A DNA stretch of 64,000 nt, taken from NCBI RefSeq assembly GCF_030013595.1, contig NZ_CP122768.1. The stretch is one strand, 5' to 3'. The translations under genes and the position numbers were made by a program. Of the stretch, positions 1 to 27,883 are shown piece by piece. Source of the DNA: Escherichia coli. Its GTDB lineage: Bacteria; Pseudomonadota; Gammaproteobacteria; Enterobacterales; Enterobacteriaceae. The first letter of the stretch is position 1, and every line of letters starts with the position of its first letter. The notes below the pieces were generated by a model, which was not told where the DNA came from, did no database searches, and was given only the letters and a program-made list of their open reading frames with translations.

Positions 1-883
1 TTCTCTTTTTAAACTGTATGTCTTCTGGATTTCCCACTAACTGACTGAAATCTCCTTTCATAACTCTTTCGCTTGTTTCAAAGAGCTGTATTGCTATCGA
101 GTCGATTAATTCCTTTTTGGACAGAGATGCTTGTTCATAAAATTTGGTGACTAACTCTGTTGGTAACTTTCTTGAGACGACTTTAATGGACAGTCTCTGA
201 AATAGGTAAGGTGCCACCACGCCCACACTGAAAGGGTGAATCCTCCCTGGATTTAATAATTTTATTGTGACGTTTTCAAAAACTAGCTCATTGATTTTAC
301 TATTTATGAATTCCATTAAATACTTATCTAATGATAATGTTACCGACGCAACCGCTTCTATCACTTGTTTAAATGGCTCGCCTTTCAAGGATTTAAAAAA
401 CTCTTTGTTATAACCAAAGAAATCCACAAAACCTAAATTTATTCGATTTTCTTCTTTAGTATTTGAAATGCGAATTTGAAGTTGTTTTAAGTCTTCATCG
501 GTCAAGTATTTTAAACCATAGTCATCAAGCGCGTTACGTATAACTTTATCTGCAGATTCTAAGTCGATTACAGTTTTTACATTAAAAAACAATGATAACA
601 ATGAATCATACTTATGAACTCGCAAGGTTAAATCTGTTGCATTTGATGCGGTTACATTTATACGTCTCAAAAGATCAATAACTTTACTAATTGGTAGGCT
701 GTTTTCAAAAATTTTGAATGACTCGTATTCAGATACAACATCTTTTATATACTTACTGATAGTATGAGACTTTATTTCCACCTCAACTTCGGTTGAGTAA
801 GAATGAATTAGTGAGTTTGTAGTTTCAGCGATGTCATTTGATACATACAACTTATATTCGAAACAATCAGGAGCGGGAAGCAA
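1..883 (-). CDS. hypothetical protein, partial (continues past left window edge); AT-rich accessory gene
   Basis: Open minus-strand frame from 883 to position 1 (>290 codons, translated by hand); no in-frame ATG near the 5' end, candidate GTG start at 779-781 after GAAG; different frame from the upstream ORF; ~30% GC. Confidence 0.4.
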   Translation of the reverse strand, partial: MLPAPDCFEYKLYVSNDIAETTNSLIHSYSTEVEVEIKSHTISKYIKDVVSEYESFKIFENSLPISKVIDLLRRINVTASNATDLTLRVHKYDSLLSLFFNVKTVIDLESADKVIRNALDDYGLKYLTDEDLKQLQIRISNTKEENRINLGFVDFFGYNKEFFKSLKGEPFKQVIEAVASVTLSLDKYLMEFINSKINELVFENVTIKLLNPGRIHPFSVGVVAPYLFQRLSIKVVSRKLPTELVTKFYEQASLSKKELIDSIAIQLFETSERVMKGDFSQLVGNPEDIQFKKR

Positions 884-1233
884 CTATTATCAATAATGGA
901 AAACAATAAAAATTTAATTATTTCTCTTAATGCTTGCGGTCTAGTTATTCTACCTTGCATTTTTTTACATTGTATTAAACCACTTACAACACCGTTATGG
1001 TATAGCACGCAGTCGCGTCCTCTTTCAGAAACTCCTTGCATTAAAGATATTGAGGATATATTTTTATGCTTTCCATCTTCAATTTCGTTCTTTACTAACA
1101 AATAACATAGCAACTCAAATTCTCGATCACCTAATTCTGAAAAGGGAAGCAATCCGATACCAGAATCTATAGTCCATGGTCTATATCCTGATTGAGCCTC
1201 GATATTAATTTGTTCGTCACTGATTTTTTTCAC
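808..1233 (-). CDS. hypothetical protein with PD-(D/E)xK-like motif (GRD...16 aa...IQCK)
   Basis: 141-aa ORF, GTG start at 1231-1233 with AAGGAG 6 nt upstream; AT-rich; motif recognised by eye only. Confidence 0.45.
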   Translation of the reverse strand: MKKISDEQINIEAQSGYRPWTIDSGIGLLPFSELGDREFELLCYLLVKNEIEDGKHKNISSISLMQGVSERGRDCVLYHNGVVSGLIQCKKMQGRITRPQALREIIKFLLFSIIDNSCFPLLIVSNISCMYQMTSLKLQTH

Positions 1234-1248
1234 TTAAATCTCCTTCTA

Positions 1249-1277
1249 ATCTTATTGACCTACTCCCTACATTGTAA
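1249..1277 (-). promoter_or_regulatory. putative sigma70 promoter (TTACAA-17-TAAGAT) for the 808..1233 ORF
   Basis: -35/-10 hexamers with 17-bp spacer read on minus strand just upstream of the RBS. Confidence 0.3.
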
Positions 1278-1548
1278 CAGGGGATGATGATAAGGTGTAT
1301 CTTTCGAGCTATAAGCACGATAAATAAGTGATTAAAAATGACTCTTTAAACTATTTTAATTTAAAAAATTAATTGTTAGTTCTAATTATGGTATGAGGGC
1401 ATTTTCGGCATAGTTCTAACCATATACTTTGGTAAAAATGACTGTTACGGAACAGACCATAGTAATGCCTGCTATTGGCACGGAGCGGGCCGCCTGAGCG
1501 CCGTGGGGTCTGCAAACGGTAAGCATACCGATAACTATACGCTTGGCC

Positions 1549-2376: not shown

Positions 2377-3246
<870 letters not shown>

Positions 3247-3271: not shown

Positions 3272-3320
3272 CAGCACGATCTTGCATACGACGTGCTACG
3301 GTTTCATTTATCTCCGACCG
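3272..3320. terminator. hairpin between convergent GIY-YIG gene and pin (likely bidirectional terminator); partner of repeat at 2251..2298
   Basis: Dyad AGCACG-13 nt-CGTGCT followed by GGTTTCATTT; overlaps last pin codons. Confidence 0.45.
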
Positions 3321-3894
3321 GAAACTTCTTATACAAAGTCGATACACCCACATCGTAGATAATCGCCACCTTCTGGCGAGGAGTTCCTGCTGCAATTAAT
3401 CTTCCGGCTTGTGCCCATTGTTCTGGTGTAAGTTTGGGACGACGTCCACCAATTCGTCCCTGTGCGCGAGCAGCTTCCAGTCCAGCTTTTGTTCGTTCAA
3501 CAATCAGTTCACGCTCCATTTCAGCCAGGGCACCCATCACATGAAAGAAAAAGCGTCCCATTGGTGTGCTGGTATCAATTGAATCCGTCAGACTATGAAA
3601 GTTGATGCCTCGTTCGCGCAACTCCTCCACCAACACGACAAGATGCCGCATACTACGCCCCAGCCGATCCAGCTTCCAGACAACCAGAGTGTCACCTGCC
3701 GATAATGTCCTGAGCAGTTTTTTCAGTCCCGGCCTTTCGGACTTTGTGCCGCTTATCTTGTCTTCAAAAATCAGCTCGCATCCTGCACAGTTCAGCGCAT
3801 TACGTTGTAGATCTGTGTTCTGGTCATTTGTTGATACGCGTACATAGCCAATAAGCATGGTAGATCCCCCTGACAAAAGCAGGAATGATGCCAT
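3304..3894 (-). CDS. pin: DNA invertase Pin (Gin/Hin/Cin serine recombinase family)
   Basis: 196-aa ORF begins MLIGYVRVSTNDQNTDLQRNAL, near-identical to recalled e14 Pin. Confidence 0.95.
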   Translation of the reverse strand: MASFLLLSGGSTMLIGYVRVSTNDQNTDLQRNALNCAGCELIFEDKISGTKSERPGLKKLLRTLSAGDTLVVWKLDRLGRSMRHLVVLVEELRERGINFHSLTDSIDTSTPMGRFFFHVMGALAEMERELIVERTKAGLEAARAQGRIGGRRPKLTPEQWAQAGRLIAAGTPRQKVAIIYDVGVSTLYKKFPVGDK

Positions 3895-3912
3895 TTGCTC
3901 GTTATTTCTGCA

Positions 3913-3938
3913 TTTTCATAAACGTTGGTTTGGGAGAA
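3913..3938. repeat. gix/pix-like inversion crossover site (pin-proximal)
   Basis: TTTTCATAAACGTTGGTTTGGGAGAA; reverse complement matches 5774..5799 at ~20/26 and fits the AAACC..GGTTT core of Gin/Hin sites. Confidence 0.6.
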
Positions 3939-4283
3939 GCGGCAAAGAGGAATGTGGGGACAGGAGAAAATCAGGTACCGGATATGAACAGCTTTGGTAA
4001 CTCATTGACCGCCAATGGATACCAGAAATTACCTGGGGGGATGATTATTCAATGGGGGAGTTTTTCTGTCTCACCAACCGGAGGAAGTGTTGGAACAGTT
4101 GATATAACATTACCTGTAGCTTTCCCTGCTGCTTGTCGTTCGGTAAACGCTCTTATTTCAACTAATGATCCTTCTGCCCGTTCTGTGGGCTTTGATATTG
4201 GAAGTACCAACAGAACTAAAATCAGATTTACTTACACTTCTGCTACAACAAATTCAATTTACTGGATGGCTGTGGGGTATTAA
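3939..4283 (+). CDS. alternative tail-fibre C-terminal segment (Sv'-like), silent in this orientation
   Basis: In-frame coding begins at the crossover site; followed by a tail-fibre-assembly gene; upstream part of track ORF 3885.. spans the recombination site. Confidence 0.6.
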   Translation, partial: AAKRNVGTGENQVPDMNSFGNSLTANGYQKLPGGMIIQWGSFSVSPTGGSVGTVDITLPVAFPAACRSVNALISTNDPSARSVGFDIGSTNRTKIRFTYTSATTNSIYWMAVGY

Positions 4284-4285
4284 CT

Positions 4286-4717
4286 ATGGAAAAGACATAT
4301 TATTTTAATCCCTCTGATTCGGGATTTTATATTTCACCAGATAGCCAAACCATTCCTGAGAACGCTACGAAAATAAACTTTACTATTTATTCTGAGTTCG
4401 CAGGAGTTGCATGGCCTGATGGTAAAATACTTGGTTCAGATAAAAATGGTTTTCCAGCATGGCAGGATGCGCCACCACTTACCAGCGAAGAATTAATCTC
4501 AATCGCTGAATCAAATAAACAGCGATTAGTTAATCAGGCCAACGAATACATGAACAGTAAACAATGGCCTGGTAAAGCGGCGATTGGTCGTCTGAAAGGT
4601 GAGGAACTGGCGCAATATAATTTGTGGCTGGATTATCTGGACGCACTGGAACTGGTCGATACTTCCAGTGCGCCAGATATTGAATGGCCTACTCCTCCGG
4701 CAGTTCAGGCCAGATGA
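4286..4717 (+). CDS. tail fibre assembly protein (alternative, U'-like)
   Basis: 143 aa; C-terminal [12 protein letters not shown] motif typical of Tfa proteins; inside invertible segment. Confidence 0.75.
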   Translation: MEKTYYFNPSDSGFYISPDSQTIPENATKINFTIYSEFAGVAWPDGKILGSDKNGFPAWQDAPPLTSEELISIAESNKQRLVNQANEYMNSKQWPGKAAIGRLKGEELAQYNLWLDYLDALELVDTSSAPDIEWPTPPAVQAR

Positions 4718-5294
4718 CATCCGGCGCGGTACTGGTATCTGTTGCCGTCACCGCGTCAATGTAATCCAGCACAGTGTTAAGTCGGGTGGTCTCTGCCTGC
4801 ATCAGCTTCCGCCCGGCCTGCAATTTCAGTTGAATCAGACTAATGGAAGCCATTGCAGTATCAATCAGTGACTGACGTTGTGCTTCTGCCGCGTCTACTG
4901 CGGCGCTATGCTGTGTCTCAGTATCCGTTACCCATTTCTCACCATCCCATTTATCGTATGGCGTTAACGGGGCGATAGTGGTTGTTTTTTCGGGGTAATC
5001 ACCCGGAGTTGTGATTTCTTTGGCGTCTCCCGTTTCGGTGTTATAGACGATTTCACCGCGATGGTCTGGTACATATTCCCATGAGTTAAAATCTGCAGAG
5101 CGGCAGATTGCATAACCAGCTTTGTAGGTGCCTGGAGCATCTAAACAGGAATATGCCGGAATGCCGACACCAACAGCAAGATATTCAGTTGAAGCTGAAA
5201 TATACTCCCGACTCATGACGTCAAAGTTATAAACAGTAATTTCTCCTGCCATAGTGGCAATTAATTCACTGTTTAATTCTGCGTTATTCATCAT
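4689..5294 (-). CDS. tail fibre assembly protein (expressed orientation, U-like)
   Basis: 201 aa; C-terminal [15 protein letters not shown]; directly downstream of tail fibre gene. Confidence 0.8.
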
Positions 5295-6076
5295 GCGGCC
5301 CTCACAATATAATTAAAGGCGATGTTACGTGGACGATTTTCATTTGCTGTTGGAACAACATTTGCCGCCGAGAAGTGAACATCTTGTCGGATTTTTCGGT
5401 CATTAGCGTATGTCATAGACACATTGATGTTATTCCGGACTGAGGTACCTCCGTAAAAAGCTCCACTCACACTTTGAACATCGACAATTGCATTAATTTC
5501 GCTGTTTACGCGCAACTGACCAAAACCGCCAGTAATGTTTCGAATAGCATCTCCTTGCGATGAAAGCAGAGTTCGCCCACTATCCACACCACGTTCATCA
5601 TCCCAGCCACGAATAAACTCACCGCGTAAATCAGGCAATTTATTTGTCGGGTAAGACTTTGCCAGTTCCGGGTATTCTTCAGCAGAAAAAGCCGCACCAT
5701 TGCATTTCAGCCAGCCTGTTGGTGGAGTGGCTGAAGGCCACGGAACAGGCACACCAACGGGTAATGCCGAACCTTCTCCCAAACCAAGGTTTTCGAGAGC
5801 TGTTTTCACCGTGCCATCCGATTTGATATCGCCAAACGGATTCTTGCGGCTTAACAGCAGCGCACGAAGCGCGGTAAGCAGCTGGTCATGCCGCCCCTTC
5901 TCCAGGCTGGCACCGGATGCCTCCACAACGCTGCAAAGCTCCTCCTGCAACATGTCAAAGTAGTCATCATCCAGATCGGTGGCAGGCGTGCCGGTCTGGG
6001 GGTTACCACGGGTAAAACCGTTCTTACCCGCGCCGAACTTATCCTTCTGCGCGGTTTTCGTGTCTATACGATGCAT
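5291..6076 (-). CDS. tail fibre protein (constant N-part fused to variable C-part)
   Basis: 261 aa; contains second crossover site about 92 codons in; position after Mu gp48-like gene. Confidence 0.8.
5774..5799. repeat. gix/pix-like inversion crossover site (inside tail fibre gene)
   Basis: TTCTCCCAAACCAAGGTTTTCGAGAG, inverted repeat of 3913..3938. Confidence 0.6.
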
Positions 6077-24246: not shown

Positions 24247-25575
24247 CTGATGAATCCCCTAATGATTTTGGTAAAAATCATTAAGTTAAGGTGGATACAC
24301 ATCTTGTCATATGATCAAATGGTTTCGCGAAAAATCAATAATCAGACAACAAGATGTGCGAACTCGATATTTTACACGACTCTCTTTACCAATTCTGCCC
24401 CGAATTACACTTAAAACGACTCAACAGCTTAACGTTGGCTTGCCACGCATTACTTGACTGTAAAACTCTCACTCTTACCGAACTTGGCCGTAACCTGCCA
24501 ACCAAAGCGAGAACAAAACATAACATCAAACGAATCGACCGATTGTTAGGTAATCGTCACCTCCACAAAGAGCGACTCGCTGTATACCGTTGGCATGCTA
24601 GCTTTATCTGTTCGGGCAATACGATGCCCATTGTACTTGTTGACTGGTCTGATATTCGTGAGCAAAAACGACTTATGGTATTGCGAGCTTCAGTCGCACT
24701 ACACGGTCGTTCTGTTACTCTTTATGAGAAAGCGTTCCCGCTTTCAGAGCAATGTTCAAAGAAAGCTCATGACCAATTTCTAGCCGACCTTGCGAGCATT
24801 CTACCGAGTAACACCACACCGCTCATTGTCAGTGATGCTGGCTTTAAAGTGCCATGGTATAAATCCGTTGAGAAGCTGGGTTGGTACTGGTTAAGTCGAG
24901 TAAGAGGAAAAGTACAATATGCAGACCTAGGAGCGGAAAACTGGAAACCTATCAGCAACTTACATGATATGTCATCTAGTCACTCAAAGACTTTAGGCTA
25001 TAAGAGGCTGACTAAAAGCAATCCAATCTCATGCCAAATTCTATTGTATAAATCTCGCTCTAAAGGCCGAAAAAATCAGCGCTCGACACGGACTCATTGT
25101 CACCACCCGTCACCTAAAATCTACTCAGCGTCGGCAAAGGAGCCATGGGTTCTAGCAACTAACTTACCTGTTGAAATTCGAACACCCAAACAACTTGTTA
25201 ATATCTATTCGAAGCGAATGCAGATTGAAGAAACCTTCCGAGACTTGAAAAGTCCTGCCTACGGACTAGGCCTACGCCATAGCCGAACGAGCAGCTCAGA
25301 GCGTTTTGATATCATGCTGCTAATCGCCCTGATGCTTCAACTAACATGTTGGCTTGCGGGCGTTCATGCTCAGAAACAAGGTTGGGACAAGCACTTCCAG
25401 GCTAACACAGTCAGAAATCGAAACGTACTCTCAACAGTTCGCTTAGGCATGGAAGTTTTGCGGCATTCTGGCTACACAATAACAAGGGAAGACTTACTCG
25501 TGGCTGCAACCCTACTAGCTCAAAATTTATTCACACATGGTTACGCTTTGGGGAAATTATGAGGGGATCTCTCAG
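24247..25575 (+). mobile_element. IS10, complete 1329-bp copy
   Basis: Outside end CTGATGAATCCCCTAATGATTTTGG at 24247, inside end CTGAGAGATCCCCTCA (reverse complement) at 25560-25575; flanks GGTTCAACA and TATTAAGCG differ, so no 9-bp duplication. Confidence 0.95.
24354..25562 (+). CDS. IS10 transposase
   Basis: 402 aa beginning MCELDILHDSLYQFCPELHLKRLNS, matches recalled IS10 transposase over its length. Confidence 0.97.
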   Translation: MCELDILHDSLYQFCPELHLKRLNSLTLACHALLDCKTLTLTELGRNLPTKARTKHNIKRIDRLLGNRHLHKERLAVYRWHASFICSGNTMPIVLVDWSDIREQKRLMVLRASVALHGRSVTLYEKAFPLSEQCSKKAHDQFLADLASILPSNTTPLIVSDAGFKVPWYKSVEKLGWYWLSRVRGKVQYADLGAENWKPISNLHDMSSSHSKTLGYKRLTKSNPISCQILLYKSRSKGRKNQRSTRTHCHHPSPKIYSASAKEPWVLATNLPVEIRTPKQLVNIYSKRMQIEETFRDLKSPAYGLGLRHSRTSSSERFDIMLLIALMLQLTCWLAGVHAQKQGWDKHFQANTVRNRNVLSTVRLGMEVLRHSGYTITREDLLVAATLLAQNLFTHGYALGKL

Positions 25576-26632: not shown

Positions 26633-27883
26633 TTACATGTTCTTGATGATTGCATCACCAAACTCGCTGCATTTCAGCAGTTTAGCACCTTCCATCAGAC
26701 GTTCGAAGTCATAGGTTACGGTCTTGGCGTTGATTGCGCCTTCCATACCTTTAACAATCAAGTCTGCGGCTTCAGTCCAGCCCATATGGCGCAGCATCAT
26801 CTCAGCGGAGAGAATAATAGAGCCTGGGTTTACTTTGTCCTGACCGGCATATTTCGGCGCAGTACCGTGGGTGGCTTCAAACAGGGCGCATTCGTCACCG
26901 ATGTTTGCGCCTGGGGCGATACCGATACCGCCGACCTGTGCAGCCAGAGCGTCAGAAATGTAGTCACCGTTCAGGTTCATACAGGCGATAACATCATATT
27001 CAGCCGGACGCAGCAGGATCTGTTGCAGGAATGCGTCAGCAATCACGTCTTTAATGACGATCTCTTTGCCGGTATTCGGGTTTTTAACTTTCAGCCACGG
27101 GCCGCCGTCGATCAGTTCACCGCCAAACTCTTCACGCGCCAGCTGGTAGCCCCAGTCTTTAAACGCGCCTTCGGTGAACTTCATGATGTTGCCTTTGTGC
27201 ACCAGGGTCACAGAGTCACGATCGTTAGCAATTGCGTATTCGATCGCTGCACGAACCAGACGTTTGGTGCCTTCTTCCGAACACGGCTTAATACCGATAC
27301 CGCAATGTTCCGGGAAGCGAATTTTCTTCACGCCCATCTCTTCACGCAGGAATTTAATCACTTTCTCGGCGTCGGCAGAGTCAGCTTTCCATTCGATACC
27401 CGCATAAATGTCTTCCGAGTTTTCACGGAAGATAACCATATCGGTCAGTTCAGGGTGTTTAACCGGGCTTGGAGTGCCCTGATAGTAACGTACCGGACGC
27501 AGGCAGATGTAGAGATCCAGTTCCTGACGCAGGGCAACGTTCAGAGAGCGAATACCGCCACCAACCGGAGTGGTCAGCGGACCTTTAATGGCAACGCGAT
27601 ATTCACGAATCAGATCAAGGGTTTCAGCAGGCAGCCAGACATCCTGACCATAAACCTGTGTGGATTTTTCACCGGTGTAAATTTCCATCCAGGAGATTTT
27701 ACGCTCGCCTTTATAGGCTTTCTCGACTGCAGCGTCGACCACTTTCAGCATGGCTGGGGTTACATCTACACCGATTCCATCACCTTCAATGTAAGGGATA
27801 ATCGGATTTTCAGGAACGTTGAGTTTGCCGTTTTGCAGGGTGATCTTCTTGCCTTGTGCCGGAACAACTACTTTACTTTCCAT
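26633..27883 (-). CDS. icd: isocitrate dehydrogenase (NADP)
   Basis: 416 aa, [45 protein letters not shown]; full-length match to recalled E. coli Icd. Confidence 0.97.

Follow-up and report, generated by a model that had tools for sequence, protein, structure and literature searches.

In the 64,000-nucleotide (nt) window of Escherichia coli DNA analysed here (contig NZ_CP122768.1; all coordinates refer to this window), the minus strand of positions 1..1233 carries two overlapping reading frames. Judged from the alleles of other genomes, these are a single 488-codon gene broken by a single-base deletion. The intact gene probably encodes a stand-alone, one-polypeptide nuclease that acts against phages or other mobile elements and is switched by its C-terminal domain, and the copy in the window appears to be inactivated. 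The analysis shows the gene structure, the fold and motif of the nuclease and the modular reuse of the N-terminal part of the protein, and the function is inferred.

Two reading frames of one 488-codon gene

The open reading frame (ORF) at 1233..808 (-) comprises 141 codons and begins with a GTG at 1233..1231, the same start that the RefSeq annotation of the intact allele uses. Reading of the sequence places a Shine-Dalgarno motif (AAGGAG, 1245..1240, minus strand) 6 nt upstream of this GTG. The ORF contains ...SERGRDCVLYHNGVVSGLIQCKK..., and its motif stretch is ...SERGRD(74)CVLYHNGVVSGLIQ(88)CK(90)K.... The codons of E40, D74, Q88 and K90 lie at 1116..1114, 1014..1012, 972..970 and 966..964, and 16 residues separate D74 from K90. 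A second minus-strand frame, with a 76-base overlap with the first ORF, stays open for 294 codons from a TTG at 883..881 to the left window edge. The initial annotation had described an AT-rich region with an acidic residue, a GRD and an IQCK at nuclease spacing, together with an overlapping frame of more than 290 codons. All of these are present and lie on the minus strand, which had not been stated; G+C is 33% in the gene region and 52% in the window overall. When the surroundings of the gene start were scanned for promoters and terminators, the sites were no more numerous than in shuffled sequence.

We compared window positions 1-1400 with 5,426 complete E. coli genomes by megablast. The gene segment was found in 29 of them at ≥99% identity, and most matches spanned 1401 bases against the 1400-base query, under one annotated coding sequence (CDS). 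The frame is continuous in 24 of the 29 carriers. In strain ECONIH4, for example, the intact allele (NZ_CP026399.1, 2096010-2097476) is a 1467-nt CDS of 488 amino acids (aa), WP_000723924.1, which RefSeq names a hypothetical protein. Aligned with the intact alleles, the window differs by three substitutions and one T missing from a TTT run. The frameshift site is at 882..883 (-), codon 117/118, where the window has TT instead of TTT (GATAATAG[T]TTGCTT).

The first 117 codons (883..1233, minus strand) are in the native frame and encode most of the nuclease core, including α1, β1, β2, β3 and α2. The truncated ORF then continues out of frame for 24 aberrant codons to a stop at 810..808 (808..882, minus strand). 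In the shifted frame, codons 118-135 (830..882, minus strand) encode the end of the nuclease core with β4 (residues 126-131), which is lost from the truncated product. Codons 136-240 (515..829, minus strand) encode an extension, N2, delimited by domain-wise searches with hidden Markov models and by the alignment of the N-terminal modules; a PADLOC model of the Lamassu effector LmuA extends into it, to about residue 180-190. Codons 245-411 (2..502, minus strand) encode the first two thirds of the C-terminal domain. The window thus holds codons 1-411, and codons 412-488 lie to the left of position 1.

The initial annotation had left a choice between one gene split by a frameshift and a two-gene operon with a GTG start at 779-781. 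The second choice, in which the small nuclease ORF and the large frame would each be translated, from an operon or through programmed frameshifting, can draw on the 76-nt overlap and on the TTG at 883..881 and the GTG at 781..779 that the second frame offers. We reject both forms of it because the frame, of about 485 codons, is undivided in 24 of the 29 E. coli carriers, in about 160 homologue clusters from other bacteria and in every full-length relative. The GTG at 781..779 is the internal codon V151 of the intact gene and has no ribosome-binding site of its own, the junction AAT AGT TGC does not fit the slippery pattern X XXY YYZ, and the different lesions at other positions in other strains form a pattern of decay rather than of recoding. 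Expression as two products is therefore extremely improbable, and the annotation of the window is corrected from an operon to one pseudogene.

Predicted nuclease core and protein architecture

With a mass of about 56 kDa, the intact protein is soluble and acidic throughout (net charge about -11). A sequence scan found no Walker A motif and no membrane or hydrophobic segment in it, and we dropped membrane association as a candidate property for lack of a hydrophobic segment. An AlphaFold2 model built from a 30-sequence alignment (mean predicted local distance difference test score 83) shows a core at residues ~30-135 with the elements α(36-52), β(61-65), β(75-79), β(82-90), α(98-114) and β(126-131). 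This α-β-β-β-α-β order is the canonical one of PD-(D/E)xK nucleases. The putative catalytic residues are placed accordingly in the model: E40 is in helix 36-52, D74 immediately precedes strand 75-79, and Q88 and K90 are at the end of strand 82-90. Residues 136-220 form a helical α/β extension, residues 220-244 a low-confidence linker, and residues 245-488 are all helical.

E40, D74, Q88, C89 and K90 are invariant in 30 of 30 full-length homologues, down to 31% identity, and in 31 of 31 N-terminal modules including those of fusion proteins, down to 21% identity. Invariance of this extent means that the motif is not a chance match. The Pfam Mrr_cat model (PF04471) detects four of the 30 full-length relatives and three of the 31 N-terminal modules at an expectation (E) value of ≤1e-3, 24 of the 31 modules at E≤0.1, and one homologue cluster carries a precomputed PF04471 match. 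In structure, the catalytic domain comes closest to AF1548, AspBHI, MspJI and LlaBIII, which are Mrr-family and modification-dependent enzymes. Predicted fold, motif position and conservation support the initial assignment to the PD-(D/E)xK group and, more specifically, an Mrr-type core at residues 1-135 that is predicted to cleave DNA.

The C-terminal domain (residues 245-488) is specific to the 488-aa family and matches no Pfam family or solved fold. The large frame had initially been regarded as an unknown partner protein. It is not a separate protein but the rest of the same polypeptide, namely the helical extension of the nuclease module followed by the C-terminal domain, for which no relatives are known. 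Its most conserved motif, LQxRIxxxxxxxRxxLGxVDFFGYxxEFF, lies at residues 249-289 (window ~370..490, minus strand). For this motif, a weak profile match to residues 70-108 of influenza haemagglutinin HA2 (whole-sequence E 0.008, domain E about 3) was judged to be due to chance. The same was concluded for the monooxygenase 3mcs (E 0.002-0.003), which appeared in PDB profile searches with the full-length, N-terminal-module and C-domain alignments. Searches of Pfam, NCBIfam, PHROGs and PDB sequences with the whole protein gave nothing usable.

Spread of the family and reuse of the N-terminal module

We searched 1.84 billion representative proteins exhaustively with HMMER and obtained 558 matches. 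When the query was split into three profiles, all three parts were found in 156 of 261 retrieved proteins, with lengths of 440-520 aa. Residues 1-240 occur alone, at the N-terminus, in at least 35 representative clusters of larger proteins (800-1600 aa), and the sampled proteins above 800 aa contain a P-loop STAND NTPase or TPR repeats. One such fusion (P0198) matches Pfam nSTAND_NTPase5 and nSTAND3 and the PADLOC candidate PDC-M54A. The extension 136-240 is found with the nuclease core in every case, and the STAND-NTPase and TPR fusions are no exception.

One PADLOC model of the Lamassu effector LmuA (PDLC03852) matches the query weakly (E 0.0036) and does better with eight of ten relatives, where E falls to 1.3e-8. 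In every match, residues ~35-190 align with positions 18-175 of the 336-position model, and therefore only the nuclease half of LmuA is shared. The top Foldseek match is an LmuA structure (9nxx_D). Some UniRef entries name homologues DUF4297, the older name of the Cap4/LmuA nuclease domain. We conclude from these sequence comparisons that residues 1-240 are a mobile effector module, which recurs in one LmuA subtype of Lamassu, in Avs-like proteins and in the family described here. In the library clustered at 50% identity, the clusters of the family number 65 at E≤1e-30, rising to 397 at E≤1e-10, from Proteobacteria and Bacteroidota. Among plasmids, tblastn detected the gene in just two records, and one of these is a chromosomal contig that was assembled wrongly. 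In the literature we found no paper that names WP_000723924 or a solo LmuA-like system.

Putative function and alternatives

We propose that the C-terminal domain (residues 245-488) keeps the nuclease module inactive as a monomer. A cue of infection would then lead to self-association driven by this domain, and the association would pair two nuclease cores into a working site of DNA cleavage. The logic of a nuclease activated by oligomerisation has also been demonstrated for Avs tetramers. LmuA, the nearest characterised relative of the nuclease module, is likewise an inactive monomer that cuts DNA only once its C-terminal domain assembles a tetramer pairing two nuclease domains, and the isolated N-terminal part of LmuA is toxic upon artificial dimerisation (bioRxiv 10.1101/2025.03.14.643221, 10.1101/2025.04.02.646746). 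A bolder version, in which the ~485-aa family is a self-contained immune nuclease whose 245-residue helical domain has a new fold, senses infection and drives the activating oligomerisation, is possible but doubtful. If true, it would represent a third and minimal switch for the Mrr/LmuA-type module, beside sequestration by SMC proteins in Lamassu and the STAND NTPase of Avs-like proteins.

Several observations weigh against a defence nuclease of this kind. The link of the family to phage defence is drawn by inference, and it is conjecture that the C-terminal domain acts as sensor or oligomeriser, with profile and structure searches detecting no relatives of this domain. A profile search that used the C-domain to look for it behind other effectors brought up nothing but fragments of the family itself; since the domain is found only behind this nuclease module, there is no evidence of effector swapping. 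The query itself gives no match to PF04471 and reaches no Pfam threshold, and no family in PADLOC, NCBIfam or PHROG extends over the full length of the protein. By tblastn, the gene is in none of 50,697 sequenced phage genomes. The frameshift of the window may also be a homopolymer sequencing error, which is weighed below with the lesions of other strains.

The most serious functional rival is a type IV modification-dependent restriction endonuclease, in which the rest of the protein recognises a modification of foreign DNA. The structural matches of the catalytic domain to Mrr-family and modification-dependent enzymes agree with it, and so does the position of the gene, which follows the Pin invertase and closes an e14-like prophage inserted next to icd. 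It would fill the slot of mcrA, which follows pinE in the e14 of E. coli K-12. However, neither an SRA domain nor a winged helix nor any other modified-DNA-binding domain was detectable, and the non-catalytic parts of the protein are acidic. Sequence similarity to the Mrr catalytic domain (PF04471; AF1548, PDB 1y88; MspJI, AspBHI, LlaBIII) is marginal, and the nuclease of the family is N-terminal and followed by ~350 residues that have no counterpart in the Mrr enzymes and no detectable DNA-recognition domain. We consider type IV restriction unlikely. The gene might instead be a degenerate, orphaned LmuA that has lost its partners LmuB and LmuC and has no function of its own. The PADLOC match of the N-terminal half, the LmuA structures ranked first by Foldseek, the DUF4297 names among UniRef homologues and the repeated inactivation in E. 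coli would fit such a remnant. Its C-terminal domain, however, is unrelated to that of LmuA and yet well conserved, and no SMC-like gene was adjacent in the annotated and Pfam contexts of the examined loci. An orphaned effector is accordingly very unlikely.

The proposed stand-alone nuclease shares some features with each of several known systems. With LmuA (PDLC03852; PDB 9nxx, 9hr5, 9ux8) it has in common the layout of nuclease, linker and helical C-terminal domain, and its N-terminal ~190 residues are homologous to one LmuA model, as expected of a Lamassu effector. A nuclease active only upon assembly driven by the C-domain is likely the shared logic. In contrast, the C-terminal domain with which LmuA binds LmuB/LmuC and tetramerises was not found in the family, nor was an adjacent LmuB gene. 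With Avs and other STAND proteins (Avs4, PDB 8dgf; PDC-M54A), only the N-terminal module is common: proteins of the 488-aa family lack a P-loop (no Walker A, no NTPase match in Pfam) and a repeat sensor, and the 245-residue helical domain stands in place of both NTPase and sensor. Functional selection has identified single-gene defence nucleases in E. coli prophages, including PD-T4-3 and a protein with an Mrr nuclease and a β-propeller (Vassallo et al., 2022, PMC9519451). These systems and the family are alike as prophage cargo, as single genes and in an N-terminal Mrr nuclease followed by a non-catalytic C-terminal domain, but the PADLOC models of those systems do not match the family, whose C-domain is helical and not a β-propeller.

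The nuclease module is known as a defence effector, and its combination with a family-specific control domain would be new. A widespread family still annotated as hypothetical would join a proven defence effector to a new control domain with no need for a partner gene. If validated, the family would enter the defence catalogues as a compact single-gene system and provide a simple model of a nuclease effector that is silenced and then released without an ATPase.

State of the window copy and repeated inactivation in E. coli

The window allele codes for a fragment of at most 141 residues without β4 and everything after it, and the product should therefore be inactive. At least four independent lesions were found in other E. 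coli strains. B1S11 has lost an A from an A7 run at codon 90, 1297KP has a C729A change that gives Y243*, ECONIH5 carries an IS5 insertion at nt ~100-104, and PD7 carries an IS1 insertion with loss of nt 169-1028. Counting the missing T of the window, the gene appears to have been inactivated at least five separate times in the species. These five independent knock-outs hint at a cost of keeping the gene active.

The window copy is either a pseudogene or an otherwise intact gene with a homopolymer error of sequencing or assembly. An error would fit the loss of a single base from a 3-base run and the similar loss in the A7 run of B1S11, and the assembly of E. coli CX15 illustrates how error-prone some records are. 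Nevertheless, a 3-base run is short for a systematic error. The nonsense mutation of 1297KP, the IS5 insertion of ECONIH5 and the IS1 insertion with deletion of PD7 cannot be homopolymer errors, and genuine decay of the gene therefore occurs. The deletion in the window is probably real, and an intact gene in this strain is improbable. An error would alter the status of the window copy only and not the identity of the gene.

The CX15 record in question, NZ_CP081745.1 ('plasmid unnamed5'), is an 18-kb linear sequence that duplicates the prophage end and the neighbouring island. Many of its genes are frameshifted, and it resembles a by-product of assembly more than a replicon.

Genomic neighbourhood

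Of the e14-like prophage inserted beside icd, this gene is the last that the window shows. Down the coordinates, the order is icd (26633..27883, with an integrase beside it), the tail and baseplate genes of the prophage, a Pin/Gin-type serine invertase, Pin (3304..3894, minus strand), the validated single-gene defence system PD-T4-3, a 139-aa orphan ORF and the gene itself. PD-T4-3 is a GIY-YIG nuclease gene at 2473..3246 (+), with a full-length match to PADLOC PDLC04031 (E 2e-140) and the RefSeq name 'LEM-3-like GIY-YIG', and lies 1.2 kb from the gene. The two form a small defence islet after pinE. B1S11 has no PD-T4-3 at the same place, and the cargo is therefore variable.

The 139-aa ORF between them (WP_001333214.1, 1549..1968, minus strand) has a hydrophobic N-terminus that resembles a signal peptide. 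It matches no NCBIfam or PADLOC model and does not stand beside the homologues in other taxa. We considered a toxin-antitoxin pair with this upstream gene and dropped it, as the 139-aa gene is absent from the other loci.

The context survey covered the window locus and seven other taxa. All-against-all BLASTP of every ORF within ±4 kb of these eight diverse loci found no shared neighbour. The gene is carried by P2-like prophage ends in Enterobacter and Pseudomonas, by small integrase islets in Stutzerimonas and Burkholderia and by an island in Acinetobacter, and it also occurs beside a HepT/MNT toxin-antitoxin pair. In a conjugative element of the Bacteroidota type, it adjoins a large methyltransferase-helicase and a pair of an OLD-like ATPase-nuclease and a UvrD helicase, which is Gabija-like by domain content.

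The DNA beyond the gene varies among E. coli strains. In ECONIH4 (11411..19401 of our locus L001), it consists of an IS66 element followed by a CP4-type island with ykfI/yafW, an antirestriction protein, a JAB-domain protein and a WYL-domain regulator. In B1S11, 1297KP and PD7, it is a fragment of a LysR gene and paoD. The prophage end therefore abuts different DNA depending on the strain.

Two further elements of the prophage were observed. Within an e14/Mu-like tail module, positions 3304..5300 form an invertible host-range segment, in which the Pin gene adjoins two opposed genes for tail-fibre assembly, 4286..4717 (+) and 4689..5294 (-). The segment has the opposite orientation in the extra contig of CX15. 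Near the integrase end, beside icd, an IS10-type element (24292..25562) encodes a 402-aa IS4-family transposase, named ISVsa5 by RefSeq, and contains the antisense RNA-OUT at 24292..24361 (Rfam RF00240, 98.8 bits).
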